DNA of 64,000 bases. Source: Bacteroidales bacterium. Lineage in GTDB: Bacteria; Bacteroidota; Bacteroidia; Bacteroidales; P3. This document shows, in pieces, positions 9,971 through 37,611 of this stretch. How positions within the stretch are numbered: position 1 is the stretch's first letter; each line of letters starts with the position of its first letter. Location: NCBI GenBank assembly GCA_024400545.1, contig JAKSMO010000003.1, positions 1,170 to 65,169 on the forward strand, read 5' to 3'. The translations under genes were made by a program, and so were the position numbers. Below the pieces are notes generated by a model. The model did not search any database. It saw nothing but the letters and a program-made list of their open reading frames with translations, and was not told the DNA's origin.

Positions 9971-10008
9971 ATAGGAACACAAAGTAAACAACTACAAATC
10001 AATAATAA

Positions 10009-10878: not shown

Positions 10879-10887
10879 AAAACTGCT

Positions 10888-11328
10888 ATGCATATCGTTA
10901 TCATTAACGGACCCAATCTTAACCTCCTCGGCAAGCGTGAGCCTACCATTTACGGCTCACGCTCGTTTGAGGACTACTTGGAGCACCTCCACACCAGTTT
11001 CCCTGAGGTGGAAATTGAGTATTATCAAAGCAATGTGGAGGGCGAGATTATCAACAAACTACACGAAGTGGGTTTTTCGGCCAACGGTATCGTTCTCAAC
11101 GCCGGAGGCTACAGCCACACAAGCGTGGCCATTCACGATGCCATTGCCAGCATCGACACACCAGTAATAGAAGTGCACATCAGCAACATCTACGCACGAG
11201 AGCCGTACCGCCACAAATCGCTACTAAGCGATGCCTGCCAAGGCGTTATATGCGGATTAGGCCTGCCGGGCTACCGGCTGGCAATACAAAGCATTTTAGA
11301 AAGTGGAGAGTTGAAAATTGAAAGTTGA
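10888..11328 (+). CDS. aroQ: Type II 3-dehydroquinate dehydratase
   Basis: 146 aa, with MHIVIINGPNLNLLGKREPTIYG and HISNIYAREPYRH. Confidence 0.93.
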   Translation: MHIVIINGPNLNLLGKREPTIYGSRSFEDYLEHLHTSFPEVEIEYYQSNVEGEIINKLHEVGFSANGIVLNAGGYSHTSVAIHDAIASIDTPVIEVHISNIYAREPYRHKSLLSDACQGVICGLGLPGYRLAIQSILESGELKIES

Positions 11329-11380
11329 AAGTTGGCTGCCGCCCACGATACAATCTACAATCCGAATTCTACAATCCCAC

Positions 11381-21977: not shown

Positions 21978-22033
21978 AATTATGTCCGTATTTTTCGCAC
22001 TGCAAATATACGAATAAAAATCGACTTGCTCCC

Positions 22034-22119
22034 ATTTTTGGCGTAAAATCAGGACCAAAAGTCCTATTTTTAGCGTAAATTCGGGACTTACCGTCTCATT
22101 TTTGGCGTAAATTCGGGAC
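22034..22119. repeat. 3 x 22-nt direct repeat, period 32 (atttttGgcgtaaaWtcRggac)
   Basis: Copies at 22034..22055, 22066..22087 and 22098..22119, located upstream of the minus-strand ATPase promoter. Confidence 0.85.
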
Positions 22120-22254: not shown

Positions 22255-22379
22255 ATTCCACAAAAAAAGTGTGGAATAATTCTAAACATTCCACAAAAAA
22301 AGTGTGGAATAATTTCAATATTCCCCAAGAAAAATGTAATTTTCTTAATCTATTCCGCAAAAAAAGTGTATTTTTGCAC
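22255..22379. repeat. 4 x ~27-nt direct repeat, period 32-33 (attccacaaaaaaagtgtggaataatt and degenerate copies)
   Basis: Units begin at 22255, 22288, 22320 and 22352. The first two are identical and each contains the palindrome ttccaca-N7-gtgtggaa. The last unit carries the TATTTTTG -7 box at 22369..22376. Confidence 0.8.
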
Positions 22380-22404
22380 ATTAAACACAAACACCTCAAA
22401 CACC

Positions 22405-23724
22405 ATGAAGAGATTAGTTTACAGCAAGTTAATATCATGGAAAAACAACACCAAGCACAAACCGCTCATCATCCTTGGTGCCCGACAAGTGGGGAAAACC
22501 TACATTTTAAAAGAATTTGGTACAAAAGAATTCGAGTCTATGGTTTACGTCAACTGCCACCGCGATACATTTGCCAAGCAGCTATTCCGAGACCTCAACG
22601 TGGTGCGTATCACGAAAGAGCTGGAACGATATTTCGACACCACTATCGTCCCAGGCAAAACGCTTGTCGTATTCGACGAAATCCAAGAAGTAGAAAATGG
22701 CATCGCCAGCTTGAAATACTTCTGTGAAGACATGCACTCACTGCATGTTGCCGTGGCAGGGTCTTTGTTGGGAATCTCTATCCGCGAAAACGAATCCTAC
22801 CCTGTGGGCAAAGTGCAGACCCTACACATGTTCCCCATGAGCTTCATAGAGTTCCTTATGGCCAGAGGGAAAAATGGCATGGTCGAGACCCTTACCGAGC
22901 TCAACTGGGACATGATGAGTGCCCAACACGAACCACTCATAGAATTGATGCGCGAATACTTTTTTGTGGGAGGCATGCCGGAAGCCGTTGCAGACTACTG
23001 CGAAAACCAAAATCCGACAACGGTACGACAAATACAATCAGAGATACTTGACGCTTACCAACGCGACATAGCCAAGCACACCAAAAACATGGCACAACGC
23101 ATACGCATGGTATGGGACAACATACCGGCACAACTCGCCCGCGAAAACAAGAAATTCATTTTCGGAGCAGTGCGCAAGGGAGGCCGGGCCGCTGATTTCG
23201 AACTAGCACTGCAATGGTTAGCCGAAGCCGGTATCATCACACAGGTGTCCCGAGCCAAGTCAGTCGCCCTTCCATTGAAATTTTATGCCGACCCATCTGC
23301 CTTCAAAGTTTACATGCTCGACTGCGGACTACTCGCATGCATGGCAGGAGCCAACCCCAACGACATGTTACTGGGCACTAATGCCTTTGTCGAATTTAAA
23401 GGAGCTTTTACCGAAAACTACATCCTACAGCAACTCTGTTCAACCTTAGGACGCGACAACATCTACTATTTCGCCAAAGACAACTCAACACAAGAAATCG
23501 ACTTCCTTGTCCAAACACAGGCTAGAACGCTTCCCATCGAGGTCAAGGCCACAGTCAATGTCAAGAGTAAATCGCTGTCAACCTTTATCAACAACGACCA
23601 TGCCGACCAAGGCCTCAAAGGACTGCGTTGCTCCCTCCTACCCTACGCTGACCAAGATTGGATGGAGAACATCCCCCTCTACGCTGCCGAGACTTACTTC
23701 CAACAATATGCTGAATACGTTTAG
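22405..23724 (+). CDS. AAA ATPase, AAA_14 + DUF4143 type
   Basis: The track starts at GTG 22366, and the first ATG at 22405 gives MKRLVYSKLISWK. Walker A is ILGARQVGKTYIL and Walker B is LVVFDEIQ. Confidence 0.8.
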   Translation: MKRLVYSKLISWKNNTKHKPLIILGARQVGKTYILKEFGTKEFESMVYVNCHRDTFAKQLFRDLNVVRITKELERYFDTTIVPGKTLVVFDEIQEVENGIASLKYFCEDMHSLHVAVAGSLLGISIRENESYPVGKVQTLHMFPMSFIEFLMARGKNGMVETLTELNWDMMSAQHEPLIELMREYFFVGGMPEAVADYCENQNPTTVRQIQSEILDAYQRDIAKHTKNMAQRIRMVWDNIPAQLARENKKFIFGAVRKGGRAADFELALQWLAEAGIITQVSRAKSVALPLKFYADPSAFKVYMLDCGLLACMAGANPNDMLLGTNAFVEFKGAFTENYILQQLCSTLGRDNIYYFAKDNSTQEIDFLVQTQARTLPIEVKATVNVKSKSLSTFINNDHADQGLKGLRCSLLPYADQDWMENIPLYAAETYFQQYAEYV

Positions 23725-23758: not shown

Positions 23759-25060
23759 ATGGATTACCTCTACGAAACACGTCGCTTAAAAGAATACTAC
23801 CAAGGACTTGCCAAGGCAGCCGCTTCCATCTTGCCAAAGCAGATGGAAGACGAACTTCGCCAAGACATCGCAGACCCTGCCACCGATCAGCAATATCGCG
23901 AAACCATGTCTTTCTGGGCTTTTGTGTTCCTGCCTTTCTTCAACACCATGGCCTATATTGTCAACAACCGATTCATTCATGAGGATGAGTCCAACATCCT
24001 CGGCGACCTCGACCCTCACAAGCCAACCCTGCCCCCGCAGTCTATCTATCAATTCCTGCTACGTCTCAACCCTATGCCAGCCGAGGAGTTTGTGCGCACC
24101 ATCCAAAGTTCATCTGCCGTCCACGACCACCTTTTAGATGCTCTAACGCAACGCGACGAAGCGCAGTTCTGCACCATCTTGAGCGAGAATCATTGCGGAC
24201 TCGATGTCATCAGCCACCTGTGCAACCAGTTGTGGGACAATGTAAGCGATGTTTTTACATTAGAAGAAAACGAAATACCGATCATGATGGAGGCTTCCCT
24301 TGGCATCACCCGCAGCATCAATGCCTCCACTCCAAACCCCATGATTCCTCACATGGAGCAGGTGGTGCGGTCCGGCGAGCGGCTGGAAGCCGAAGACTCG
24401 GACAAGAATTTCCAGCAGTACATCATTGACTTTAACACCTTTCTCTGCAAATATTTTACCTATCTCATATCGCACTACCTTGACTGGCAAGCGTATTTTT
24501 CCCAGCAAGAAGCCGACCTTCTCAGCCAAATCCTGGCGCGCCCCGAAGGACAGATGCAGTATCAAGCAGCCTTGGCGCAATATCATCAGCAGCAATCCGC
24601 TGCGCACGATGACCTTTCCGCTGCGACCCTGTCCTGGACTCTGCCGTCCGACTTCTTCACCCTTCGTTGCGATGCTGCCCATTGTGAAGAGTATCTTGCC
24701 ATCAACGATGAAATCATCTCGGCCGGTGCCGACAAGTTCGCCCAGCTAATCAACTACTTGGCCGAGAACGACTACATCGGTTCGTCAGCCCAGACCAAAC
24801 AACTTCTGGCCTATCGGCTGGTCGGCAAGATGCGCCCCGATGATGTTGACACGCTAGAATGGCACGGCCACAACAACCAGCCCTACGAGCTCATCTATCT
24901 CATCAAACATCTCTCTGCCCGGGCCAACTACCGCAAGATGCGCCAGTTCTTCACTGGTCCGCAATGGGTCAAAGACCGCGACAGCAGCTATGCCAAGAGT
25001 GCCCATTACGACTTCCGCCGCTTCCTCCACCACCTCTATCCCACCTCATGTCCCCTCTAG
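23759..25060 (+). CDS. Hypothetical protein (433 aa)
   Basis: Long ORF with an ATG start, 35 nt after the ATPase stop. I recognise no motif. Confidence 0.55.
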   Translation: MDYLYETRRLKEYYQGLAKAAASILPKQMEDELRQDIADPATDQQYRETMSFWAFVFLPFFNTMAYIVNNRFIHEDESNILGDLDPHKPTLPPQSIYQFLLRLNPMPAEEFVRTIQSSSAVHDHLLDALTQRDEAQFCTILSENHCGLDVISHLCNQLWDNVSDVFTLEENEIPIMMEASLGITRSINASTPNPMIPHMEQVVRSGERLEAEDSDKNFQQYIIDFNTFLCKYFTYLISHYLDWQAYFSQQEADLLSQILARPEGQMQYQAALAQYHQQQSAAHDDLSAATLSWTLPSDFFTLRCDAAHCEEYLAINDEIISAGADKFAQLINYLAENDYIGSSAQTKQLLAYRLVGKMRPDDVDTLEWHGHNNQPYELIYLIKHLSARANYRKMRQFFTGPQWVKDRDSSYAKSAHYDFRRFLHHLYPTSCPL

Positions 25061-25262
25061 CTCTGCATCCTTACAGTCATGCTTTATGTCGGGGCGAACA
25101 AGTATATAAGTTTATGAGGGACTGGCTTAGTAGCATAATTGATTTGGCGCAGAAGTTGGCAACTTCTTCCGTTTTTAAGAAGGAGGGGGGCAGCCTCACG
25201 CCTGCAGAAAATCAGTTTGTGATAAAAGACCTCTAGGACTTGGCGAATAACGGTACCCTGAC

Positions 25263-25826
25263 TTAGTGCGAATCCAGCTCACCCACAAAATACCTTTTTG
25301 CCGTTTCTGCCGTGGCTTTATATTTGTTCTTAATGAGATACTGAAGCGTTGCTTGGAGCGACCTCATTTCAGGAACATCCTTCATGCCCCAGAAAAGCTT
25401 TGTGAACCTAGAGTCCAAATTGGATGTATTCTGCTTGGATTCTGACAAGAAATTCTTAAAGTCCGTAGGCAAATCATATTTTTCCAAACTTATCTTATTC
25501 TCAGCCGCATTATCAAGAATAAACTTATCAATTGCAGGATTAATTGTGATCAGATATTGTGAGCGACTATTATGCTTGAATAATGTCAGATGACTTGTTT
25601 CTGCAATCTTGCTGCATTGGCTAAAGAAATTATTCTTGCGATGCTGAACACGATCCAAGTCGATAATACCTATAGCGAACCTATCTTTGAACGTATTGTT
25701 CAAACTTCCAATTACATTGTTGCAACCATGCTGATGATTAACCGTACCATGTACTAAGGTCTGTATCAGATTTGTGTCAACGAAACACTCTGGGATAACT
25801 TCTGGATGGTCTAATTTATTCTTCAT
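25263..25826 (-). CDS. Small partner protein of the upstream ATPase, possibly PIN/Toprim-like
   Basis: 187 aa with a 4-nt overlap with the ATPase gene. The N-terminal ECFVDTNLIQTLV and the later GIIDLD are acidic motifs reminiscent of PIN/Toprim nucleases. This is a weak call made by eye only. Confidence 0.6.
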   Translation of the reverse strand: MKNKLDHPEVIPECFVDTNLIQTLVHGTVNHQHGCNNVIGSLNNTFKDRFAIGIIDLDRVQHRKNNFFSQCSKIAETSHLTLFKHNSRSQYLITINPAIDKFILDNAAENKISLEKYDLPTDFKNFLSESKQNTSNLDSRFTKLFWGMKDVPEMRSLQATLQYLIKNKYKATAETAKRYFVGELDSH

Positions 25827-27007
25827 AGATATGCTTCAAAATTAAAAAACAAATCAACCCCATTATAAATCGTATCCTCAATCATATCCTCGGAGAATGA
25901 GACAACATCATATTGATCATCATCGATTGGTCTTGTCATATATAATCGAAAATCTTTCGGACGATACTCCAACATTTGATTTAGCACATAAGGGCTATGT
26001 GTTGTCACGAAAATGGTATGCTTCCTATCACCGGCCATCAACCGATCCAGAATCCAGTTGATGAACTTATACTGAGTTGGAGGAAATAGGTTGTTTTCAG
26101 GTTCCTCTAGGAATATTTCGCTATGGTCAGTCTTTAGCAATCGATTCACATAACCATTAAATTTCTCTCGCTCCTCTTCAGTGCTAAACAGGTACGATTG
26201 CAGCTTGCTATTGAGGTAAAATTCAGTAGTCACTTTCTTTGAACCGCTTTTGGTTGCAAGACAACGGTTATAAATGATGTCGAATGTATGCTTGATTTCT
26301 GCGACCTTATTCAAGGAAAGATTTTGGAGATTCTTCTTTTCATCATCAAAGATTCCATTAAGAAGATAGTCCGTATGCACAAACAAAGGCATAAGCGACT
26401 GAATACCGCTGGATGTTTCAGCCAATTCCAATTCTTTACCACTTTTGAGAACAACAAGATCTTTCTCCTCTGTAGAATCAAAGTGGTAGTTTATTCCTAG
26501 ATTTAGTACGTTTTCTGTAGCGGCTTTGCTTCTTCGCGAAACATCCCACTCTTCCATAAATTCTTGAAGATGCGGGGATACATTTGACAAACCTTTATAA
26601 TCTTTAAAGAGAGAAACAACATTTCTGTCAGATGTGATGTAAGAAACTTTTGGTCTACAGTACCTCCAAGCGTTTCTATTCGTTTTGCAAGAGAATTTTG
26701 CCCTGGGCTTAGCATTGTCAAACGCAAACTTAAGATATGTGGTGCTATATTCAATATAAGAATCTTGTTTCAGGTAATTTCCCATGCCGTAATAATTGAT
26801 CAGATGCTCAATAAAGCAATTCTCCTTCTCAAAATAATCAGAAGATTGGAGTAGCATTATTCTTTTCTCTACCCATGAGCAGAAGCTAGCAATACGCAAG
26901 ATAGAACTTTTCCCCGAACTCTGCACGCCAAAAATCACATTCACCCGATCCAGTTCTATGTCGGCGTTACGTAGCGGTCCAAATCTTTTTACAATCAGAT
27001 GTTTCAT
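25823..27007 (-). CDS. ABC-like P-loop ATPase (AAA_21-type)
   Basis: 394 aa. Motifs: Walker A GVQSSGKSS, LEEPENNLFP, and H-loop TTHSPYVL. Confidence 0.75.
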   Translation of the reverse strand: MKHLIVKRFGPLRNADIELDRVNVIFGVQSSGKSSILRIASFCSWVEKRIMLLQSSDYFEKENCFIEHLINYYGMGNYLKQDSYIEYSTTYLKFAFDNAKPRAKFSCKTNRNAWRYCRPKVSYITSDRNVVSLFKDYKGLSNVSPHLQEFMEEWDVSRRSKAATENVLNLGINYHFDSTEEKDLVVLKSGKELELAETSSGIQSLMPLFVHTDYLLNGIFDDEKKNLQNLSLNKVAEIKHTFDIIYNRCLATKSGSKKVTTEFYLNSKLQSYLFSTEEEREKFNGYVNRLLKTDHSEIFLEEPENNLFPPTQYKFINWILDRLMAGDRKHTIFVTTHSPYVLNQMLEYRPKDFRLYMTRPIDDDQYDVVSFSEDMIEDTIYNGVDLFFNFEAYL

Positions 27008-27089
27008 TATATTTCAATCGTTTGCGAGACACAACTGTAAGTCGATGCTGCGGCATGCAGAATCAAGTTGGTATACTTTTTTTCAGTTG

Positions 27090-27097
27090 CAAAGATA
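27090..27097 (-). promoter_or_regulatory. -7 promoter box (TATCTTTG on the minus strand) for the ATPase/partner operon
   Basis: The plus strand reads caaagata. The box is 83 nt upstream of ATG 27007. Confidence 0.45.
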
Positions 27098-27629
27098 CGA
27101 TTTTTTTTCAAAATACTGCTTTTGTTTGTTTAAAACCAACTTAAATTATGAATCATTGGTGATGTTCGGCACAAAAAATCCTCTCAGCATTTCACTAAGG
27201 AGATGAAATGAAAAAAGTGATACAATGTGTCGTTTTGTCAAGTTGTCATTTTGTAATTTTTTCAATTCTTTCCAAGCAAGCTTGGCTAGAAGGACTGAAA
27301 GAAATTATCAGAAATGTTCCAGAAATTATTGACAACTAGCAATTTCTGATTAACAATGACTTTCTCGGATTTTCACTGGAAATCCTCGTCTTTCAGTGCA
27401 TAAGTTTCGCTTGCGAAACTTAAATAATCCAATTATTAGAGGCTACGCAGAATTATCCGAAGTAACCAACTTCAGGGCGTATTGTAGCGAAATCTGGTCT
27501 ATTGGAGAATATCTGACAACAACCGCGTCAGCCATCTCGCTCTTTTTGAGGGAGGGGGTGGGGCAGGGCGTTTCATGGCTATAGTTACCTATAATTGCCT
27601 ATGGCTCGACGAATCCGAGGATTTTTTTG

Positions 27630-27637
27630 TACTTTTG
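27630..27637 (+). promoter_or_regulatory. -7 promoter box (TACTTTTG)
   Basis: Matches TAnnTTTG and is preceded by a T-run. It is the first of three same-strand boxes upstream of the operon. Confidence 0.35.
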
Positions 27638-27737
27638 CAACACCTAAACAGAGCAGCGCGACACAAATAAAAGACTGAATCATATTGCTTTGGAAAGGAA
27701 AGTCAAGGAGCAAAGGCATTGTTTCAAAAAAAGTGCG

Positions 27738-28060
27738 TATCTTTGCACTCGGAAAACGGCGAGCGACATGCCGTTTCCACACAAAGGTAGCATTACTATC
27801 GTCAGTGTATAGGAATTTGCCCAAATCCCATTGCCAACATGACGAGAAACCGGTGCCTTACTACTTGACGAATGTTCTCGGCGAGAGCCGTTGGACATAT
27901 CCTCCAAGCATAGTACTAGGTCTGAAATCTCTGTTGGCAAGGTCGGGCAAAACCTCTATACGCAGCGATCAGGACCCCGGTTCTATGCTTTTTCTTTGTG
28001 TCACCCGCTCAGCAGAGACACCCACAATACTCCGCCTTGACAGGTTGCAGAACATGAAAA
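27738..28060 (+). ncRNA. Leader-like unit A: promoter box plus a ~300-nt non-coding transcript homologous to the operon 5' UTR
   Basis: TATCTTTG box at 27738..27745. A 5' hairpin pairs GGAAAACGGC with GCCGTTTCC (27751..27778). An internal helix pairs AAGCATAG (27906..27913) with CTATGCTT (27983..27990). The conserved box ggttctatgctttttctttgt lies at 27979..27999. The only ORF is a 3-codon ATG-AAA-AAT-TAA. Confidence 0.4.
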
Positions 28061-28106
28061 ATTAAGAAAAATTTGCAAATAAAGGCTCAGTATCAAAAAA
28101 AATGTG

Positions 28107-28435
28107 TATCTTTGCACCCGGAAATGGAAGAGAGTTTATTCCATTTTCATGCAGCGAAAGCATTTGTATAGGCCGTGAACTAAAAATCGCCAATTTTTAC
28201 AACAGAAGGTCTAGATACTGATGCCTTTCTATTACTTATCGTGCAAGTATGTGTCCCTATCATACTTCTCTTTAAGCATAGAATCGAAGGTCTTCTCAGT
28301 CTCTGTTTCTGTTAGGTGTTTGGCGATACCTTAGTTCCGCGGAGACGATACACCAGAGTTCTATGCTTTCTTTGTACCCAATTATTAACCGCCAACCCGG
28401 GAACTCTGTACGGCAACAAAAAGCATAATAAGCCT
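28107..28435 (+). promoter_or_regulatory. Leader unit B: promoter box plus a ~320-nt structured 5' UTR of the operon
   Basis: TATCTTTG box at 28107..28114. A 5' hairpin pairs GGAAATGGAA with TTCCATTTTC (28120..28148). A helix pairs AAGCATAGAA (28274..28283) with TTCTATGCTT (28359..28368). The unit runs into ATG 28436. Confidence 0.45.
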
Positions 28436-28657
28436 ATGCCGATATTCAGAATCACAGTAAAGAATCCCAAGTTCACCAGTGGAGTCAGGGTGGAGAAAGG
28501 CATGTCTGTAGATGTGGTCACCAACAGCATGGTCAACCCTGTCACAACCAATGGCGGCCAAGAAGTAGCCAACGCCTTTATGAGAATCTACGGAATCGAC
28601 ATCAAAAAAGTCGGTGCCCTCAACATGGCTTATTTGGATGTAGAACGAATTAACTAA
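28436..28657 (+). CDS. Small protein P1 (73 aa)
   Basis: The track ORF starts at GTG 28316 inside the leader. The first ATG at 28436 gives MPIFRITVKNPKFTSGVRVEKGMSVDVV... Confidence 0.55.
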   Translation: MPIFRITVKNPKFTSGVRVEKGMSVDVVTNSMVNPVTTNGGQEVANAFMRIYGIDIKKVGALNMAYLDVERIN

Positions 28658-28671
28658 AATAAATCAAAAAT

Positions 28672-29256
28672 ATGATTGATAATATTCTATTAAATGCAAG
28701 TTCTAATGGGATTGGCCCTTTAGGATGGATTATTATTGGTGGTATAGCGATTGGTGGAGCTGCTTATTGGGCAAAAAAAGGAGAAAAGGATCAAGGTCAA
28801 ACCTCGAGTTCAAATCCCGAGCCAGATTCAAAACCCCATGTCCTATCAGACACACCAAACCAAGTTGAAGCGAAGAAGACTTTCTTGAACAATATTAACG
28901 TCTTCATTCCATTATTAAGATGTACCTCGGACACTAGAGAATCGAAAGATGCTTGGACTGACGCGATTATTGGTACAAATGACTTCAACTTGATTTCTTA
29001 TTGGAAATTGTGTTCCACCAAACCCTTTTCTACTTGGCGCAATGTGCTTGCTTCATGGGGGATAAAAGCAGAGACGTGCACAAGCTTCGTTTACGGTGAT
29101 TTGCTCAAGGGAATGTACATCACACATAACAAATCTGACTTAATTGTTGGCAAAGAATATATTGTTGTTGAACCTTGTTGGTTACAAACTTATGAAGACA
29201 GCAAAGGGAAAACAGTTAAAAGAATACTTTTAGCTGGCGTCGTAAGAGAAAAATAG
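28672..29256 (+). CDS. P2: single-pass membrane protein with a glycine-zipper TM (194 aa)
   Basis: The N-terminal GPLGWIIIGGIAIGGAAYWA is followed by a polar linker and a ~120-aa domain. It starts 14 nt after P1. Confidence 0.6.
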   Translation: MIDNILLNASSNGIGPLGWIIIGGIAIGGAAYWAKKGEKDQGQTSSSNPEPDSKPHVLSDTPNQVEAKKTFLNNINVFIPLLRCTSDTRESKDAWTDAIIGTNDFNLISYWKLCSTKPFSTWRNVLASWGIKAETCTSFVYGDLLKGMYITHNKSDLIVGKEYIVVEPCWLQTYEDSKGKTVKRILLAGVVREK

Positions 29257-29279
29257 ATTCCCTAAAAATAAGATTGAAC

Positions 29280-29870
29280 ATGGCAAAACTTCATACCTAT
29301 AACATTTGCTTTATCGGTAGAACAGGCAACGGGAAAACAAGCTTAATAAACGCATTGTTTAACACCCAATTTCCGACTGACACTCTTGTTGCATGCACAA
29401 AAGAAATGTATTCAGTCACCACTATGGATATCCACCCTATTGGATATGATGCAACAAGTGTTTATGACACACCTGGTATCGGAGAGTTTTCAACAAACGA
29501 CCGATACCAACGGTACTACGAGGATGCAGTTGCAAAAGCCAATTGTGTGGTACTTGTCACAACAATGGATCGTACAGATGCACCTGCCCAACGATTACTG
29601 ATGAGCCTAAAGCAAATTGCACATGAGAGAGACACCAAATTTGTAATTGCTCTCAACCATATTGACTCTAGAATCGTGGCAGACAATGACGAATATAATC
29701 CATGGGACGATAACACAAACTCACCAACAGAATCATGTTTGGCTAAGGTGCAAGAAAGAATTACAATTATCCAGCAGAAATTTGACAACAAGTTTTTGCC
29801 TTTTAATGTAATTCCTGTTTGTGCGAAAAGGAAATACAATATTGACCAATTATTACATATACTATTATGA
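29280..29870 (+). CDS. P3: small TRAFAC GTPase (MMR_HSR1-like)
   Basis: The track starts at TTG 29274, and ATG 29280 gives MAKLHTYNICFIG. Motifs: G1 GRTGNGKTS, G3 DTPGIG, G4 variant LNHID, G5-like VCAK. Confidence 0.75.
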   Translation: MAKLHTYNICFIGRTGNGKTSLINALFNTQFPTDTLVACTKEMYSVTTMDIHPIGYDATSVYDTPGIGEFSTNDRYQRYYEDAVAKANCVVLVTTMDRTDAPAQRLLMSLKQIAHERDTKFVIALNHIDSRIVADNDEYNPWDDNTNSPTESCLAKVQERITIIQQKFDNKFLPFNVIPVCAKRKYNIDQLLHILL

Positions 29871-30691
29871 GTGACCAAAACGAGTATAAATTCCTAGTTG
29901 AACAGATTTTTGCTGCCATTTTAGGAAATAATGTTTCTCAAGAAGATAAAGAAAAAGTCTTCGGAGCATTGGACAAAGAAATCAAGGATAAGCCATTTAG
30001 GGTTGCCGTTATCGGACAGTCCGGTGTTGGAAAATCAACCACGTTAAACGCGGTTTTTGGATTGGAAAATTACACCTCCAGTGTTGCCGAGGGCACAACG
30101 GATATCATCGAAAAAGTGTTCCCTATGAGAGATGGGTTTAACCTCTCGATTTATGATATGCCTGGGCTAAATAATGATGTTGACAAAGACATCGAGTACG
30201 AGAAAATGTATCAGAAGATTCTTCCGGAATGTGATGTAATTGTCTATATTATCAATGCCCATTCAAGAGATTTGGGTGAAGATTGTAGAATCCTAAAAGA
30301 TGTGGTCTTACCTATTTGCTCTGAAAATAAATTGATGGATAATCTAATTCTAGCATTTAACAAGATAGACACCATTGGAGAAACAGAAGACCCTAATGAC
30401 CCAGAACTTCAATGGGATATAGTGCGGAACCTTCCAACAGAAAAGCTGAAAAAGGCCATAAAAATCAAATTGTCTGATTTGAATGATAAATTAATTGATG
30501 AGCAATTGGTAATGAACGGTGTAGAAAATGCCATCTCAACCGACAAGGTTGTGTTTTATTCTGCACAGTTTAACTACAATCTAGGATGCCTTCTCGAAGC
30601 TATCACTAAAGCTGGTAAACGAGGCTGGATTTGGACTGCGACAGTTGGCTTTGAAAGAATCGGCAAATGGAGCGACAAACGATTGATGTAA
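29867..30691 (+). CDS. P4: small TRAFAC GTPase (MMR_HSR1-like)
   Basis: 274 aa with an ATGA overlap with P3. Motifs: G1 GQSGVGKST, G2 EGTTD, G3 DMPGLN, G4 FNKID. Confidence 0.75.
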   Translation: MSDQNEYKFLVEQIFAAILGNNVSQEDKEKVFGALDKEIKDKPFRVAVIGQSGVGKSTTLNAVFGLENYTSSVAEGTTDIIEKVFPMRDGFNLSIYDMPGLNNDVDKDIEYEKMYQKILPECDVIVYIINAHSRDLGEDCRILKDVVLPICSENKLMDNLILAFNKIDTIGETEDPNDPELQWDIVRNLPTEKLKKAIKIKLSDLNDKLIDEQLVMNGVENAISTDKVVFYSAQFNYNLGCLLEAITKAGKRGWIWTATVGFERIGKWSDKRLM

Positions 30692-30696
30692 AATCT

Positions 30697-31107
30697 ATGG
30701 CAAAACTCAATCTATGGAAATATGAATCTTTTCTATCCAAACATGATACTGGTAATATGACAGAAGAACAAAAAAGACAATACAATGAATTGTCCCCAAA
30801 TGGGAAAGCTGAGTACTTAAAGTCAATGGAAAGACATCCTGATTGGTCTCATAATCAACATATGGCCAAAGTTTCTATTATGGAACAAGCTGACGCAACT
30901 ATTGAGGATGGCGGTGTAAATGTAAATCCTAGTGACCCAAAACTGTGGAAAATTGTTTTGGAAAAGGCCAGCTCATTTTTGCATACAATCGGTGCTCTAA
31001 CTAAAGAAATCAAACAAAAATTTGACTATGCTCTTGGCGCAATTAAGTCGTTAATTTCCATGGGCGTAAAAAAAATTGGAGATATCATAACCTCTATTTT
31101 TGGCTAA
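30697..31107 (+). CDS. P5: small helical protein, paralog of P6
   Basis: The likely start is MAKLNLWKYE at ATG 30697; the track start 30667 overlaps P4. It shares the core HPDWS..GG.(N/D).(N/D)P.DP.L.K with P6. Confidence 0.6.
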   Translation: MAKLNLWKYESFLSKHDTGNMTEEQKRQYNELSPNGKAEYLKSMERHPDWSHNQHMAKVSIMEQADATIEDGGVNVNPSDPKLWKIVLEKASSFLHTIGALTKEIKQKFDYALGAIKSLISMGVKKIGDIITSIFG

Positions 31108-31160
31108 GCAAACTGCTACTAAATATAGAATAATAACTTATTTACTTAATTATAATTCAT

Positions 31161-31487
31161 ATGAATAACGAACTGTTCGAAAACATGAAAAAACTCCATC
31201 CTGATTGGAGTGATGCGCAAATTTGGACTGCCATTAGCTTGGACATGGAAAGTGAAAAGCAAATTGAAAAAGGCGGGAAAGACATTGACCCTAATGACCC
31301 TGGCCTGTTAAAGTCCATTGTAGCAGGTGCTAGAGCATGGCTCAAAGAAGTTCTTCCGATTATTTTCGAGAAAGTAAAAGCATTCTTTGATTACATCAAA
31401 GACCATATCGGAGAGTGGGTCGCTGCTGGTCTTGAGGCTGTTAAGAGATGGATTGGCGAAATCCTGCCTACATTTATCGGCTTCTAA
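31161..31487 (+). CDS. P6: small helical protein, paralog of P5
   Basis: 108 aa. LHPDWSDAQIWTAISLDMESEKQIEKGGKDIDPNDPGLLKSIV aligns with the P5 segment RHPDWSHNQHMAKVSIMEQADATIEDGGVNVNPSDPKLWKIVL. Confidence 0.6.
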   Translation: MNNELFENMKKLHPDWSDAQIWTAISLDMESEKQIEKGGKDIDPNDPGLLKSIVAGARAWLKEVLPIIFEKVKAFFDYIKDHIGEWVAAGLEAVKRWIGEILPTFIGF

Positions 31488-31501
31488 TCAAGTTGTGTCG
31501 A

Positions 31502-31532
31502 AAATAGGGGATAGCCTTGCTTTCCCCTATTT
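31502..31532 (+). promoter_or_regulatory. Intra-operon hairpin with a 9-bp stem
   Basis: AAATAGGGG (31502..31510) pairs with CCCCTATTT (31524..31532) around a 13-nt loop. No T-run follows. Confidence 0.45.
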
Positions 31533-31583
31533 CCGATACATATGAACTACCCAGACTAAAGTTAAACAAGCGTAATACGTATT

Positions 31584-32216
31584 ATGGCTGAAAAAGAAGT
31601 TTCTCAGAGTACAATAATGAAAGCAATGGACTGGGCATACGACAAAGCTGTGAACGGAATCCCAGGTTTTGACTCAGCAGAGGACATGGCTCACGACTAT
31701 CTTCAAGGAGATGGATCATTAAGAGATAAGGCCAATCGATTGATTCGATGGCAAAATGCAAAGTCAGGAACATCAGGATTTGTAACTGGCCTTGGTGGAC
31801 TACTAACATTGCCACTCACTCTTCCTGCAAATATTACTAGTGTGTTATATGTCCAGATTAGAATGATTGCCGCAATCGCAAAGATGGGAGGATATGACCT
31901 TAAAGACGACCGCGTAAAATCATTAGTATATTCTTGCTTGGTGGCCACCTCTGCTGCTGATGTGGTAAAGCAAACAGGACTAAAAATAGGCGAGAAAATT
32001 GCAGTCAATGCCGTCAAAAACATATCAAAAGAAACAATAAAACAAATTAATGCAAAAGTTGGATTTAAGCTCTTTACAAAGTTCGGAGAGAAAGGGGTAA
32101 TCAACATTGGTAAAACCATTCCAATTTTAGGAGGTCTTATTGGTGGTATTTTTGATGTTGTCAGCACCAATACTATCGGCAATGTTGCAAGAGACACATT
32201 CATCCCTAGACCTTAG
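31584..32216 (+). CDS. P7: EcsC/DUF697-like protein with glycine-zipper segments (tentative)
   Basis: 210 aa, with GTSGFVTGLGGLLTLPLTLPANITSVLYVQIRMIAAIAKMGG and IPILGGLIGGIFDVVS. The family assignment is by eye only. Confidence 0.55.
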   Translation: MAEKEVSQSTIMKAMDWAYDKAVNGIPGFDSAEDMAHDYLQGDGSLRDKANRLIRWQNAKSGTSGFVTGLGGLLTLPLTLPANITSVLYVQIRMIAAIAKMGGYDLKDDRVKSLVYSCLVATSAADVVKQTGLKIGEKIAVNAVKNISKETIKQINAKVGFKLFTKFGEKGVINIGKTIPILGGLIGGIFDVVSTNTIGNVARDTFIPRP

Positions 32217-32302
32217 TTCAAATAACACACGCTGATGTCAATTGGCAGCCTGATAAAACAGTAAATATCAAATTCTTTCGTTTTTCAAGGAAAACCAATT
32301 AC

Positions 32303-32719
32303 ATGAAAATAGAATTATCATTTGAAGAGATTCTGTCGGTTTTGGCAGATAATTATAACATTCCGAGCCTTAGAGTGACACAAGTTGACGAGAACACCAT
32401 CAAAATTGCCAAACCTTTATTGATTGTTTCTCCGTCCGTGAAGGTCTCAATTATGGATGTGAGCGATAATGATATTATCATTCATCAAAACAAGCTAACC
32501 ACAGCAGCTACTAAGATTCTCGATTTCTTTGGTTCCAATATTAACACATCAGTTGTAAGCATGGCCGATGACAGAATCACTATTCACCTAAAGCAAATCC
32601 CTCAACTGGCCAAAGTACTTGAGAAAGTAAACCTTGAAAACATTCGATTTACGAATGATTCTGTAGTCTTGAACTTGTCAGCAGTTCATCCACTTAAATT
32701 CAAGACGAATTTATCATGA
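32303..32719 (+). CDS. P8: hypothetical protein (138 aa)
   Basis: ATG-initiated ORF on the same strand. I recognise no motif. Confidence 0.5.
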   Translation: MKIELSFEEILSVLADNYNIPSLRVTQVDENTIKIAKPLLIVSPSVKVSIMDVSDNDIIIHQNKLTTAATKILDFFGSNINTSVVSMADDRITIHLKQIPQLAKVLEKVNLENIRFTNDSVVLNLSAVHPLKFKTNLS

Positions 32720-32752
32720 AACCAAAATCAGACATACTTAATACATACTTTT

Positions 32753-34486
32753 ATGATAAATGAAGACACTCTTATTGATCTGACACTGGAGGTTGCCAAA
32801 TATTATTTCAAGAAAAACAACCCCATTCTAAAAGAGGCAAAAGTCTCTGTTGATCGTGTAGCAGCAAAGCACCTCAGCCAGAAGCTTATGGATGTTATAA
32901 AAAAACATGCTAATGTTGTTTCGTTGGCGGGCATGGCAGATGCTATTCCTGCGGTAGGAGCGGCTGTGGACATTGGCGCAGTGATAGCATCCACATGGAA
33001 AATGTATGCTGGGATAAATGAATGTTTAGGAATCTCTATCTCCGAAAATAAATTGAAGTCCATGGCATCCGGGGTAGTGTCAAATTTAGCTGGCAATGGA
33101 GTTGGGTATGCGGCGCATTCTGTGGCGAATGGGGTCGCCACATCAGTTCCAATATTTGGCAATGTTGTAGGTGCCGTCTGTGGTTGTGTGGTCAACCGTG
33201 CGTCATTATATACTTCAGCTGCGACTTATCTGAATATTATGTGTAAGATAATGTCTTCTGGTGGCACATTTGATGAAAATTCATTGTCCGACCTTACCAG
33301 TAACAATCGGCACATATGGAATGATCCCTATTCTGAAGTTATCAACATAGGAACGATAGGGCATGCAGGGCACGGAAAGTCAACGCTGACGGCTGCTATA
33401 ACTCAGGTTTTAGCCTGTTATGGGACATGCGAAACTGTGTCGGTAAGAGATTTGGATCGTGCACCTAATGAAATCCAACAGGGTGTTTCTATCCAGACGG
33501 CCCATATAGGATACGCCATTAATGACATTCAGTTCCATCACATTGACTGTCCTGGTCATGCTAACTATGTGAAGAATATGATTGTAGGATCAAGCCAAAT
33601 GGATGCGGCCATACTTGTTGTTGCTGCAACTGATGGTCCAATGCCACAAACACGAGAGCACCTCTTATTAGCACGACAAAATGGAATAAAAAAAATAATA
33701 GTATTCCTGAACAAAATTGAGGTAATAGATGATGATGATTTACTCGATTTAGTTGAATTCGAGATTAGAGAACTATTAGATACTTATGATTATGATGGAA
33801 CCAGCACACCCATCATAAGAGGCTCGGCATTGCAAGCACTCAAGGGCAATCGAACTGCAATTCAATCAGTCGAAAACCTAATCCATGAAATGAGTTTGTT
33901 GCCCTTACCCAAAAGATGTATTTCAAAACCATTCAGACTACCTGTTGAGAAAGCAATACCGATAGACAATTACACTGTACAAATTATGGGTACTGTCAAT
34001 ACTGGCAGAATCACTATTGGGGAAAAAATTGATATTGTTGGATTAATGAATGAATCAATTACTGCCAGTGTGATGTCTATCCAAGTTGATAACCATGATT
34101 CTTCATATTGCCAAGCAGGAATGTACGCCTCTCTCATATTAAATGGAGATTTCAAAAACAAAGTGAAAAGAGGGGCTACTGCAGCAGCAATAGATACAGT
34201 CTACCCATCATCCTGCTTTGAGGCTTCTGCTTATATTTTAAAAAAGGAAGAAGGTGGACGCCAAACTGCATTTCGCAATAACTATCAACCTCAATTTTAC
34301 ATCGGAACAGCAAACATAACAGGCACAATTTCACTTCCTGATAGTAGAATCCTGGCCAACCCCGGCGACAACCTCACGTTCAAGGTAAAATTAAGTATGC
34401 CTTTGGCAATTAATCAGTACGAAAGGTTTTCCATGAGAGATAATGGCAAAACTATTGGGGCAGGAATAATAACAAAATTACTTTAA
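32753..34486 (+). CDS. P9: divergent EF-Tu paralog (all three domains) fused to a ~190-aa N-terminal glycine-zipper domain
   Basis: 577 aa. From ~aa 195 it is collinear with EF-Tu. Matching segments are INIGTIGHAGHGKSTLTAAIT (G1), DCPGHANYVKNMI (G3), ILVVAATDGPMPQTREHLLLARQ, IIVFLNKIEVIDDDDLLDLVEFEIRELL (G4 region), PIIRGSALQAL (G5) and the C-terminus GKTIGAGIITKLL. The N-terminus carries AIPAVGAAVDIGAVIAS and VPIFGNVVGAVCGCVVN. Confidence 0.85.
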   Translation: MINEDTLIDLTLEVAKYYFKKNNPILKEAKVSVDRVAAKHLSQKLMDVIKKHANVVSLAGMADAIPAVGAAVDIGAVIASTWKMYAGINECLGISISENKLKSMASGVVSNLAGNGVGYAAHSVANGVATSVPIFGNVVGAVCGCVVNRASLYTSAATYLNIMCKIMSSGGTFDENSLSDLTSNNRHIWNDPYSEVINIGTIGHAGHGKSTLTAAITQVLACYGTCETVSVRDLDRAPNEIQQGVSIQTAHIGYAINDIQFHHIDCPGHANYVKNMIVGSSQMDAAILVVAATDGPMPQTREHLLLARQNGIKKIIVFLNKIEVIDDDDLLDLVEFEIRELLDTYDYDGTSTPIIRGSALQALKGNRTAIQSVENLIHEMSLLPLPKRCISKPFRLPVEKAIPIDNYTVQIMGTVNTGRITIGEKIDIVGLMNESITASVMSIQVDNHDSSYCQAGMYASLILNGDFKNKVKRGATAAAIDTVYPSSCFEASAYILKKEEGGRQTAFRNNYQPQFYIGTANITGTISLPDSRILANPGDNLTFKVKLSMPLAINQYERFSMRDNGKTIGAGIITKLL

Positions 34487-34504
34487 TATTTTCATAGATA
34501 TTCG

Positions 34505-34873
34505 ATGAAATCAAACTCCATTGAATTTAATCAGAACGCACGGCGGGTTTATACTGCGGTGAGGCATACTTTTGAGACTTGCGATATGTTTCATCGGGTG
34601 AAGTGCGACGATATGAACTTTGTGATTACTGCCAAGCATGGGGCTAGTCTGCTGGCTTTGGGTGAGAATATCAAGGTGAGGGTGGTGGCAACTAGCACCC
34701 AAAGCAGCAAGGTGGTGGTGGAGTCGGGCAACCAATTCCCCATCAACATCCTCAACATAGGGCAGAACAAGCAGAACGTCACCACCCTCACCGAGTTCAT
34801 AGCCAACCGTGTATATCGACTCTGCAGCGATGAGGAAATCAAATTGCGCCCTACAGAAATCAAATTCAAATAG
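34505..34873 (+). CDS. P10: hypothetical protein (122 aa)
   Basis: It starts 18 nt after P9 on the same strand and is visibly more GC-rich than P1-P9. I recognise no motif. Confidence 0.5.
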   Translation: MKSNSIEFNQNARRVYTAVRHTFETCDMFHRVKCDDMNFVITAKHGASLLALGENIKVRVVATSTQSSKVVVESGNQFPINILNIGQNKQNVTTLTEFIANRVYRLCSDEEIKLRPTEIKFK

Positions 34874-35169
34874 TCTCCTTGCTTCTGTTGAGTAGGGCCC
34901 GCAATACTATGCGCTTTTAATAATAGAATTGACTTCAGGCCCCAATGTGGCTTTAAATCCCCTAGGTTTTTACTACTCTCACTACAGTTACGGTCATTCT
35001 ACGGAGATGCTACGGACTTGGAACGGTTATGCACAAGCGGACCTACACCGTAAGATCACCGCAGGATGACCGTAGGATGACTGAACTTGCAACGAAACTT
35101 TGGGTGAACGGCAACCTTAACGAGCACTTGAATGAGCGGAGTTAAGGGCTGGAAGCCTTTGCGGTTTGA

Positions 35170-35245
35170 TGGAGCGATAGACGGGGTTCGAACCCGCGAC
35201 CTGCGGCTTGGGAAGCCGCCGCTCTGCCAACTGAGCTACTATCGC
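35170..35245 (-). tRNA. tRNA-Gly (anticodon CCC), CCA encoded
   Basis: The reverse complement is GCGATAGTAGCTCAGTTGGCAGAGCGGCGGCTTCCCAAGCCGCAGGTCGCGGGTTCGAACCCCGTCTATCGCTCCA. It folds as a cloverleaf: 7-bp acceptor stem, GCTC/GAGC D stem, GCGGC/GCCGC anticodon stem with loop TTCCCAA, and T-loop TTCGAAC. Confidence 0.93.
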
Positions 35246-35334: not shown

Positions 35335-37611
35335 TTAGTGACGATGATTTTCGCCATCGCTGCGACGACGGTCGCCTTCACGACGGGGACCACGATCGCC
35401 TTCGCGACGAGGGCCACGGTCGCCATCACGGCGGGGACCGCGATCGCCATCACGACGAGGACCACGAGGACGCTGTTCTTCCTCTACATAGCCTTCGGGC
35501 TTGGGCAGAAGGGCCTTGCGGCTGAGCTTGAGCTTGCCGTTCTTTTCGTCGATAGCGATAATCTTGACCTGGACGGTGTCACCCACATTGAGGAGACCTT
35601 CGAGGGTCTCGGTGCGGGCGTAGTCGTACTCGGAGATGTGCATGAGACCTTCCTTACCGGGGAGGAACTCGAGGAATGCGCCAAACTCAACGATGCTGAC
35701 AACCTTTGCGTCATAGACCTGACCGACCTCGGGCACAGTGCAGATTTCTTTGATCCACTTGAGGGCAGCCTCGATGGAAGCCTTGTCGGCAGATGCGATA
35801 TCGACAATACCCATGCCGTCTTTCTCTTCGATATTGATGATGGAGCCAGTCTCTTTCTGGATTTTCTGGATAACCTCGCCACCCTTGCCGATAACAGCGC
35901 CGATGAAGTCTTTGGCAATCTGAATCTGAACGATACGGGGCACGAAGGGTTTGTAATCCTCGCGAGGCTGTTCGATAGTGCTCTGGATGTGGTCGAGGAT
36001 GTGGAGACGACCCTGGCGAGCCTGCTCAAGAGCCTTGGCAAGTACGTCGTAGCTGAGACCATCAACCTTGATATCCATCTGGCAAGCGGTGATACCATCG
36101 CGGGTACCGCAGACCTTGAAGTCCATGTCGCCAAGGTGGTCTTCATCGCCGAGGATGTCGGAGAGGACGGCCCACTTATCACCCTTGGAGATAAGGCCCA
36201 TGGCGATACCGGCAACGGGCTTGCGAATCTGCACACCAGCGTCCATCAATGCCAAGCAGCCTGCGCATACGGTGGCCATGGAGCTGGAGCCGTTGGACTC
36301 GAGAATATCGGAGACAACGCGGATGGTATAGGGGCAGTCGGACTCTGCGGGAAGGACTTCCTTAAGGGCGCGCCATGCAAGGTGGCCATGACCAACCTCA
36401 CGACGGCTGAGGCCGCGGTTGCCCTTGACCTCGCCAGTAGCGAAACCGGGGAAGTTGTAGTGGAGGAGGAAACGGCGGGTGCCTTCGACCACAGCACCAT
36501 CGATGACCTGCTCGTCGAGCTTGGTGCCGAGGGTGACGGTGGAGAGGGACTGGGTCTCACCACGGGTAAAGATGGCGCTACCGTGAGCGGAGGGCAGATA
36601 GCTGACTTCGCTCCAGAGAGGGCGGATCTCGTCGAGCTGACGGCCGTCGAGACGGGTGCGCTCGGCCAGCACCATATCGCGCATAGCTTCGCGCTCGGTG
36701 TCGTGGTAGTAGCGGTCGATCATGAACTGGATTTCGTCGGTAAGGGTTTCCTCGGTATAGTTGGCCTCGATGAATTCCTGCTTGATGGCAGCAAAGCCTT
36801 CTTCGCGCTGATGCTTGTTGGCAATGCCCTGCTTGGAGAACTCGTAGCATTTCTGATAGACGGCATCGCGGACACGCTGGCGGAGCTCTTCGTCGTTGAC
36901 CTCGTGGCAGTATTCGCGCTTCTCGGTCTTGCCGGCCTCGATGGTGAGTTCGGCAATGGCGCGGCACTGGATCTTGATAGCCTCGTGAGCGGCCTTGAGG
37001 GCGTTGAGCATAACGTCTTCGCTGACTTCCTTCATCTCACCTTCTACCATCATGATATTGTCTTCGGTAGCGGCAACGATGAGGTCGAGGTCGGCACGTT
37101 CGATATCCTGCATGGGAGTGTTGATGACATACTGACCATCGAGATAGGATACGCGAACTTCGGAAACGGGGCCATTGAAGGGGATGTCGGACACTGCGAG
37201 AGCGGAAGCTGCAGCGAGAGCGGCAAGCTGGTCGGGCATGGTGTTGGCATCGCCAGAGATGAGGGTGATCTGAACCTGGACTTCGGCATGGAAGTTATCG
37301 GGGAAGAGGGGACGGAGAGCGCGATCGACGAGACGAGCAATGAGAATCTCGTGCTCGGAGGGGCGCTGCTCACGCTTGAAGAAACCGCCGGGGAAACGTC
37401 CCATGGCGGCATACTTCTCCTGGTAGTCAACAGTAAGGGGCATGAAATCGACATTCTCGCCCACTTCGCGCTTGGAGCACACGGTGGCAAGAAGCATGGT
37501 GTCGTTCATACGTACAACGGCGGAGCCGTCGGCTTGTTTGGCAAGTTTGCCAGTTTCGATTTCGACCATGCGGCCATCGCCGAGGTCGAATTTTTTGGTG
37601 ATAATGTTCAT
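35335..37611 (-). CDS. pnp: Polyribonucleotide nucleotidyltransferase (PNPase) with an Arg/Gly/Asp-repeat C-terminal tail
   Basis: 758 aa. It has two RNase PH-like halves, then KH ([11 protein letters not shown]) and S1 ([20 protein letters not shown]) domains. The gene lies immediately downstream of rpsO. Confidence 0.93.

Follow-up and report, generated by a model that had tools for sequence, protein, structure and literature searches.

A 64,000-nucleotide stretch of the genome of a gut-type Bacteroidales bacterium (GenBank assembly GCA_024400545.1, contig JAKSMO010000003.1, positions 1,170 to 65,169 of the forward strand; hereafter, the window) carries a gene whose product joins a small helical domain (the N-domain) to a complete, strongly diverged copy of elongation factor Tu (EF-Tu). 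In the literature searched, no description of this rare architecture, a DUF697-type domain followed by a complete EF-Tu, was found. The analysis indicates that the fusion protein stands outside the translation apparatus and is not a housekeeping tuf product, that its EF-Tu half has lost the aminoacyl-tRNA pocket and retained the elements of the GTPase switch, and that its gene is cargo in a swappable operon of Bacteroidales, within a likely anti-phage island. The protein may belong to a conflict gene pool, probably an anti-phage one, and we tentatively favour a reading in which the EF-Tu half acts as a sensor or switch and the N-domain as an output module at the membrane.

When the fusion protein was compared with PDB sequences, residues 197-577 paired without a break with EF-Tu residues 12-393 (3e-114), in agreement with the collinearity over residues ~195-577 claimed in the original prediction, which had been made from the sequence alone; residues 1-196 had no match in this search. 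Pfam recognised GTP_EFTU at residues 195-364 (4e-49) and GTP_EFTU_D3 at residues 484-576 (7e-27), and EF-Tu domain 2 was matched weakly (4e-4, 21 bits vs. the 30.3 cut-off). The order G domain, domain 2, domain 3 is that of EF-Tu. All the motifs that had been named, with their coordinates, were recovered in the translation (Table 1), including PMPQTREH and a GAG motif near the C-terminus, and so was the divergent core of domain 2, where NYTVQIMGTVNTG stands in place of the GRGTVxTGRxExG of EF-Tu.

Divergence was assessed against 114 canonical Bacteroidota EF-Tu sequences and E. coli EF-Tu, the residue numbers of which are used for all substitutions. Seven G-domain positions that are 100% invariant in the canonical set (V20, D21, T25, R58, T61, D86 and D138) are all changed in the window protein (V20A, D21G, T25S, R58Q, T61S, D86N and D138E), which also carries I60V. 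Given this invariance, the substitutions cannot be put down to the clade; the changes in G4 and switch I are shared by 0 of the 114 canonical Bacteroidota proteins. Domain 2 of EF-Tu touches the aminoacyl end of tRNA, and the pocket for this end is made up of nine residues (H66, E215, D216, F218, T228, E259, F261, R262 and N273), seven of which are replaced in the window protein (D216K, F218I, T228M, E259Q, F261D, R262N and N273Y), whereby only H66 and E215 survive. Intact are the P-loop K24, D80, G83, the catalytic H84, N135, K136 and S173-L175, and conservation is high in the acidic helix D, in PMPQTREH and over most of domain 3. The constraint is thus uneven across the three domains (Table 1), which favours function over decay.

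With the NCBIfam EF-Tu models (TIGR00485, NF009372/3 and NF000766), the window protein falls under every curated cut-off (440.9 vs. 452, 428.4 vs. 479, 426.1 vs. 449 and 424.1 vs. 522.4 bits), and these scores far exceed those for any other NCBIfam family. A paralog of the SelB, CysN/NodQ, EF-1alpha or eIF2-gamma type was considered and rejected: there was no match above threshold, and the scores for SelB (145 bits, cut-off 242), CysN (85, cut-off 336) and EF-1alpha (137-169, cut-offs 502-540) lie far under those for EF-Tu. The window protein is 47-50% identical to canonical Bacteroidota EF-Tu, compared to 78-99% among the canonical proteins themselves. When a neighbour-joining tree was rooted on E. 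coli, the window protein formed the longest branch and fell outside the canonical Bacteroidota clade in 200 of the 200 bootstraps. No second tuf gene lies within the window. The C-terminal 380 residues derive from a Bacteroidota tuf gene. In common with housekeeping EF-Tu, the window protein has the three domains in order, the P-loop Lys, DCPGH, PMPQTREH, SAL, helix D and most of domain 3; unlike it, the protein has 186 extra N-terminal residues, a lost pocket and a location in a variable island. Thus, the claim that this is not an ordinary translation factor was upheld on several counts, namely the EF-Tu cut-offs, the position outside the canonical clade, the replaced pocket, the extra N-domain and the variable island. 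Neither of the outcomes named beforehand as refuting the original prediction was obtained, as the protein lies outside the ordinary tuf genes and the substitutions are foreign to the clade.

The first ~190 residues had been described as lacking any EF-Tu counterpart and carrying small-residue segments, and both segments, AIPAVGAAVDIGAVIAS and VPIFGNVVGAVCGCVVN, were found in the Gly/Ala-rich hydrophobic helices of the N-domain (Table 1). With the N-terminal 195 aa as the query, a stand-alone protein of 236 aa, P0121, was recovered, and the domain is conserved at 41-46% identity in P0121 and in two further EF-Tu fusions, P0003 and P0135. An exhaustive search of 1.84 billion representatives with a three-sequence profile yielded 342 representatives at E<=1e-3 (180 at E<=1e-10), the majority of them proteins of 170-220 aa that consist of the domain alone. 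The conservation in P0003, P0135, P0121 and the 342 representatives rules out a mis-called start and points to a real, modular, all-alpha domain. Its conserved core in the alignment comprises h-KHA, a hydrophobic helix led by 'IPxxG', W-x-M-Y-x-x-I-N-x-x-L-G-I-x-F-S-x-N-x-L-K-S and a second helix led by 'IPGxG'. The AlphaFold2 model is a confidently predicted all-helical bundle, with 7-8 helices (pLDDT 83, pTM 0.79), and the averaged Kyte-Doolittle hydropathy reaches maxima of 1.5-1.64 in the segments 55-82 and 124-148.

The N-domain appears to be a distant relative of DUF697/EcsC. DUF697 (PF05128) matches residues 31-131 of the window protein at 17.5 bits, vs. a gathering score of 27.7 (E 3.5e-3), and among the best 150 relatives of the domain, 14 match PF05128 at E<=1e-3 (best 1.8e-6); in PADLOC, nine relatives match PDC-S48 and six match PDC-S29. 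A comparison of the N-domain with the neighbouring EcsC-like protein gave an hhalign probability of 2% and nothing in BLASTP. PHROGs yielded nothing useful with the N-domain, the DUF6140 protein or the two small proteins p138 and p122 (all encoded around the fusion gene; see below) as queries, phage and plasmid collections searched by tblastn contained no match to the N-domain, and a scan of the N-domain alignment over genome contigs gave 47 pattern sites, 0 of which were confirmed. DUF697, which includes GTPase-DUF697 fusions of the E. coli YcjF type, shares with the window protein a helical, Gly/Ala-rich domain, hydrophobic helices led by 'IP.xG' and a recurrent linkage to GTPases; the differences are that the window domain is sub-threshold in Pfam and that its GTPase partner is a complete EF-Tu. 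The kinds of protein involved, GTPases with DUF697-type domains and EF-Tu paralogs, are already known; a pairing of the two did not turn up in the literature searched.

In fusions among the same 150 relatives, the N-domain is almost always N-terminal. Its GTPase partners are EF-Tu (five proteins), MMR_HSR1 (e.g. P0215) and a dynamin-like GTPase (P0263); the other partners are ACP-like PP-binding, Zn-ribbon, Sel1, TPR, MORN, GYF, SAP, Hsp20 and Hsp70-like domains and polytopic membrane tails. Among the nine ACP-like fusions, the phosphopantetheine Ser of the DSL motif is kept in three, and Asp or Glu stands there in six. One relative, P0144, combines an ACP-like domain with a lone EF-Tu domain 2, the aminoacyl-pocket residues of which are all canonical. 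A constant N-domain with variable partners suggests a layout of a shared output domain and interchangeable binding domains.

As a side observation, the combination of an N-domain relative, an ACP-like domain and an isolated EF-Tu domain 2 was found in three proteins (P0144, P0152 and P0159, at loci L007-L009), which end in C-terminal tandem repeats, 'EEEYL..YKE...DGEIS.RDRR.L.K....GIS..RAKELE'. The isolated domain 2 of P0144 is intact, in contrast to the eroded domain 2 of the full-length fusions.

A word-indexed search of ~5.8 billion proteins, which was swamped by canonical EF-Tu, recovered P0001, a 99% twin of the window protein, and P0003, a full-length fusion with 43% identity. Across these proteins and the 1.84 billion representatives, only ~5 EF-Tu fusions were found, namely the window protein with its twin P0001 (577 and 579 aa), P0003 (573 aa) and P0135 (581 aa), which are full-length, P0132 (461 aa), which is cut off, and P0141 (340 aa), which is degenerate. 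Identity among their EF-Tu halves is 38-58%, and that to canonical EF-Tu is 44-68%; the halves cluster in 71% of bootstraps, a grouping that may be due to long-branch attraction. Both P0003 and P0135 retain GHVDHGKT, RGI[ST]I, N[MK]CD and GRGTVxxGRxETG; because these two proteins keep the canonical G motifs, NKIE and QGVSI are specific to the window lineage, and the original prediction, which stressed these motifs and the divergent domain 2, was not borne out in so far as they do not define the family. The aminoacyl-pocket losses differ among all three full-length fusions (H66T, D216N and R262H in P0003; E215G, F218L, T228I, E259Q, F261N and N273Y in P0135). The traits shared by the EF-Tu fusions are the fusion itself and an eroded aminoacyl pocket; an altered G4 motif is not among them. 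The D138N substitution in E. coli EF-Tu shifts the nucleotide specificity to XTP, and the YchF/OLA1 family, which has an NxxE motif, prefers ATP; given these precedents, an altered nucleotide preference is plausible for the window lineage, and it would not be a trait of the fusion family.

Several public 'EF-Tu' entries (P0002, P0004, P0005 and P0050; 458-510 aa) were rejected as fusions. They contain exact internal duplications of 60-120 residues, are most likely assembly artefacts and rank above genuine relatives in searches; one of them is annotated as E. coli elongation factor Tu, partial.

The genomic setting indicates that the fusion gene is cargo in a swappable operon. Between positions 28316 and 34873, every gene is on the plus strand and the gaps are short; the order is DUF6140, a 194-aa open reading frame (ORF), two small GTPases, two paralogous small ORFs, an EcsC-like gene, a 138-aa ORF (p138), the fusion gene and a 122-aa ORF (p122). 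The contig of the twin P0001 (L003), which comes from an independent assembly, matches the window over positions 24219-28685 (94%) and 32301-34871 (96%), and between these stretches it has three unrelated ORFs, whereby the whole cargo cassette is swapped. In L010, the complete cassette of the window is found again, with the EF-Tu fusion missing. On other metagenomic contigs, the same frame was observed, with DUF6140 first and a p122 homologue (47-96% identity) last; the cargo in between consists of three dynamin-like GTPases (L011-L013), the set of EcsC and two GTPases, or N-domain fusions, and AAA_14/ATPase_2/DUF4143 ATPases often flank the frame. Homologues of p122 form 92 clusters, all of ~115-132 aa and all unnamed; they also follow the N-domain proteins P0126 and P0144. 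The p122 model (pLDDT 73) weakly resembles helix-grip/START/KA1 folds (E ~4e-4, TM 0.5-0.6). No literature on DUF6140 was found.

Neither of the small neighbours qualifies as a dedicated partner. The protein p122 was rejected as specific to the N-domain, as it ends operons that have no N-domain protein, too (L010 and L011), and p138 was rejected as obligatory, as more than 330 nt upstream of P0003 and P0135 are rich in stop codons and hold no p138 homologue. Because P0003 and P0135 have neither p138 nor p122 nearby, the fusion can stand alone.

The fusion gene itself appears to have been exchanged recently between the window (32641-34534) and L003 (~9890-11790). The two copies differ by 0 synonymous and six non-synonymous substitutions and by an indel of two codons (6 bp), vs. 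a synonymous divergence (dS) of 0.385 in p138 and 0.353 in p122 on the two sides, which indicates a recombination tract that spans just the fusion gene. All but one of the six substitutions, and also the indel, map to the two hydrophobic N-domain helices, and most of the changes cluster at nucleotides 32941-33034, in the first of them. The ratio of 0:6 is not significant alone (the chance of 0/6 synonymous is ~0.2 by arithmetic from site counts).

Some further observations were made on the frame. It was seen in the window (28316-34873) and at loci L002, L003, L007-L013 and L015, where the DUF6140 gene is 72 aa long. An M48 peptidase is also among the cargo, and p122 is present in two copies in L015.

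Table 1 Positions of the fusion gene, its domains and motifs, and the surrounding genes in the window.
Feature	Position	Strand	Description
Fusion protein ORF	32753..34486	+	577 aa and stop, ATG start, without internal stop
N-terminal all-alpha domain	32753..33310	+	Residues 1-186; apparently a distant DUF697/EcsC-like module
First Gly/Ala-rich hydrophobic helix, AIPAVGAAVDIGAVIAS	32942..32992	+	Residues 64-80; nearly invariant P66 in the alignment; Kyte-Doolittle peak 1.64
Second Gly/Ala-rich hydrophobic helix, VPIFGNVVGAVCGCVVN	33146..33196	+	Residues 132-148; begins at nearly invariant P133/G136
EF-Tu domain 1 (G domain)	33329..33904	+	Residues 193-384; 69% of canonical invariant positions kept
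G1, GHAGHGKS	33359-33382	+	Residues 203-210, from translation
Switch I, QGVSI	33479-33493	+	Residues 243-247, from translation
DCPGH	33545-33559	+	Residues 265-269, from translation
G4, NKIE	33710-33721	+	Residues 320-323, from translation
SAL	33824-33832	+	Residues 358-360, from translation
EF-Tu domain 2	33929..34195	+	Residues 393-481; strongly eroded, 32% of invariant positions kept
EF-Tu domain 3	34205..34483	+	Residues 485-577; 67% of invariant positions kept
DUF6140 gene	28436..28657	+	First operon gene; Pfam match at residues 41-109 of a 113-aa ORF starting at 28316
Cargo cassette	28672..32216	+	194-aa ORF, two GTPases, 146-aa and 108-aa ORFs, EcsC-like gene
Small GTPases	29274-29870, 29867-30691	+	Weak LeoA-like matches
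EcsC-like gene	31584-32216	+	PADLOC PDC-S29, 2.8e-89; 540 bp upstream of the fusion gene
138-aa ORF (p138)	32303..32719	+	Accompanies the fusion gene in the window and L003; without family match
122-aa ORF (p122)	34505..34873	+	Closes the DUF6140 operon in Bacteroidales; conserved, 92 clusters
AAA_15/AAA_21 ATPase	25823..27007	-	Flanks the operon upstream; PADLOC PDC-M29A, 2.6e-52
AAA_14 + DUF4143 ATPase genes, divergent pair	20724-22058, 22366-23724	-, +	Left side of the island; second is PADLOC PDC-S01, 1e-168
tRNA-Gly(CCC)	35170..35245	-	Right edge of the low-GC island

The fusion gene lies in a stretch of low GC content (positions ~25000-35100, 0.37-0.42 vs. ~0.50 in the flanks). A direct repeat of the 3' end of the tRNA-Gly gene, of the att type, was not found at k=12-14, and for lack of such a tRNA-derived repeat we refrain from describing the island as an integrated element. 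A scan for sigma-70 promoters and terminators gave nothing above shuffled sequences. An element of ~44 nt with GTATCTTTGCA, which fits the Bacteroides -7 promoter consensus TAnnTTTG, is present in three copies, one directed towards the AAA ATPase (27079-27124, minus strand) and two towards the DUF6140 operon (27712-27755 and 28081-28124, plus strand); its 11-mer occurs nine times in the window with at most one mismatch, vs. 1.6 expected.

Among the neighbours, the 146-aa (30667-31107) and 108-aa (31161-31487) ORFs are paralogues with the core 'HPDWS...GG.D..P.DP' and without a family match, and 3-4 tandem copies of them stand beside the same GTPase pair in L010 (6067-7192). The same AAA_14 and DUF4143 pair that lies to the left of the island comes after p122 in L007-L009. 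To the right, a polynucleotide phosphorylase-like ORF (35335-37611, minus strand) has a C-terminal tandem repeat rich in Arg, Gly and Asp, (GDRGPRR[DE])n, of ~45 residues.

We infer a membrane action of the N-domain, sensing by the EF-Tu half and an anti-phage role. The former EF-Tu would be the sensing or regulatory half, a switch that depends on GTP/GDP and a look-alike of host EF-Tu that is bound or modified by a factor derived from an invader, and the N-domain would be the output half, which associates with the membrane and perturbs it. The membrane-active N-domain of the original prediction is, in this respect, suggested by borderline hydrophobicity and the distant relationship to DUF697, and the decoy, sensor or ribosome-binding role put forward there is compatible with the genomic context. 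PADLOC recognised PDC-M29A, PDC-S01 and PDC-S29 in the window and PDC-M13 in L003, all of them candidates, and no validated system adjoins the gene. With PDC-S29, PDC-S30 and PDC-S48 (EcsC-like), the fusion protein shares a distant relation at the family level, and a true PDC-S29 gene is present in the window operon; unlike these families, which are themselves candidate systems (the sole paper naming PDC-S29 gives it in a list), the fusion itself has no PADLOC match.

Several observations weigh against this reading. For a transmembrane helix, the N-domain is of borderline hydrophobicity, its AlphaFold2 model is a compact, soluble-looking bundle, and a Foldseek search with this model against PDB and BFVD (viral models) gave nothing under E 0.5 and, with it, no structural relative pointing to pore formation. 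The fusion protein matched 0 PADLOC families and no PHROG, and the PDC models around it are candidates only, with no validated defence system involved. The fusion family, at ~5 proteins, is too small for statistics. As the N-domain is joined to three classes of GTPase, EF-Tu may be only a GTPase motor rather than a look-alike, and the intact aminoacyl pocket of P0144 suits ligand binding better than a dead decoy.

A more specific version of the favoured reading, which we consider unlikely, is that the protein is an integrated decoy of bacteria, in which a private EF-Tu copy, blind to tRNA, would be coupled to a domain that perturbs membranes. The binding or modification of EF-Tu by any phage protein (T4 capsid/Gol; phage kinases or ADP-ribosyltransferases) would then set off the suicide of the cell or a shutdown of its membrane. 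The appeal of this version lies in the targeting of host EF-Tu in known systems: the Lit protease (with the T4 capsid Gol peptide) and type IV Thoeris cleave it, and Avs7 binds EF-Tu domains 2-3 as a scaffold during the recognition of a capsid protein (PMC12803255), and mimicry of a host partner was proposed for bNACHT11 (PMC11702601). With Lit, type IV Thoeris and Avs7, the fusion would share EF-Tu as the point of infection sensing or translation stop; unlike those systems, which use the cell's own EF-Tu, it has a private, diverged copy built in, and it has no protease, nuclease or STAND module. Integrated-decoy receptors (plant NLR-ID and, as proposed, bNACHT11; PMC11702601) are alike in concept only, in that a copy of a host target is fused to an immune output and is free to lose its native activity, and in the fusion the native site is eroded; the fusion differs in having no NLR/STAND core.

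The main alternative, which we regard as fairly unlikely, does without mimicry and holds that the protein is a membrane-associated GTPase machine, whereby the N-domain would serve as a membrane or oligomerisation module and EF-Tu as a GTP/GDP switch of large amplitude, with a role in membrane remodelling or repair, like that of dynamin-like/LeoA systems, in defence or envelope stress. It is in keeping with the fusion of the N-domain to MMR_HSR1, dynamin-like and EF-Tu GTPases, with the operon cargo (in the window and L010, two small GTPases together with EcsC; in L011-L013, three GTPases of the dynamin-like type) and with the core GTPase motifs retained in the window protein, but it leaves unexplained the ACP-like, Hsp20, Sel1/TPR and Zn-ribbon fusions as well as the full-length domains 2 and 3 with erosion only in the aminoacyl pocket. 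Furthermore, the GTPase of EF-Tu normally requires the ribosome.

It is quite improbable, in our estimate, that the EF-Tu half is itself the effector, which, blind to tRNA, would dock on the ribosomal GTPase centre, L7/L12 or EF-Ts and jam translation or titrate EF-Ts, while the N-domain would hold it inactive or sequestered at the membrane. The conservation of helix D (the contact with L7/L12 and EF-Ts), PMPQTREH, DCPGH with His84 and domain 3, combined with the loss of the tRNA pocket, speaks for this alternative, and translation shut-off via EF-Tu is known in defence (Lit and type IV Thoeris). However, the constant part of the family is the N-domain and not EF-Tu, and most members have no enzymatic C-terminal part; residues required for ribosome-stimulated hydrolysis (switch I and the hydrophobic gate) are altered in the window copy (V20A, I60V, R58Q and T61S); and the paralog would have to compete with the very abundant host EF-Tu, which makes up 6-10% of the proteome (PMC12803255).

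We consider it very unlikely that the protein is a protective decoy against interbacterial toxins that use host EF-Tu as a cofactor, i.e. an immunity-type gene in an acquired-defence cluster. Variable immunity clusters accumulate in Bacteroidales, complexes of CdiA-CT with EF-Tu are among the matches of the PDB search (5i4q/5i4r), and an EF-Tu-requiring RNase toxin is described in the literature; however, no toxin, type VI secretion system or recombinase genes were seen at any locus examined, native EF-Tu would swamp a stoichiometric decoy, and the fused N-domain would be left without a reason. Least credible of all is a working alternative elongation factor (e.g. an antibiotic-insensitive or stress tuf) with a harmless extension, or a decaying fusion accident, because the complete three-domain collinearity and the intact ORF that would speak for it are outweighed, for the former, by the scores under the equivalog cut-offs, the seven changed invariant G-domain residues, the loss of 7/9 pocket residues and the nature of the gene as a long-branch paralog on a variable low-GC cassette and, for the latter, by a 577-codon frame that is intact at ~50% divergence, the uneven conservation and a fusion kept in at least three divergent lineages.

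Few bacterial proteins are as conserved and as abundant as EF-Tu, which is a known contact point of phage and defence. A diverged EF-Tu within a modular protein of a defence island would offer a testable case of a housekeeping protein used as a sensor or switch, which so far was only hypothesised for bacteria, and the whole architecture may be a look-alike of a host protein used as a sensor. The analysis defines a helical domain family of 342 representatives, without a solved structure, and a previously undescribed operon frame of Bacteroidales, with DUF6140 first, the 122-aa gene last and exchangeable, GTPase-rich cargo. Even on a sober reading, in which this is a GTPase-DUF697-type protein with EF-Tu as its GTPase by chance, the protein demonstrates the capture of a full tuf gene and its evolution at ~3 times the rate of the parent. 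If the decoy version is true, the N-domain with its Ser-less ACP-like, Hsp20 and Hsp70-like partners would represent a whole family of host-look-alike sensors, carried as interchangeable cargo of the Bacteroidales operon between DUF6140 and p122, and the architecture would be categorically new.

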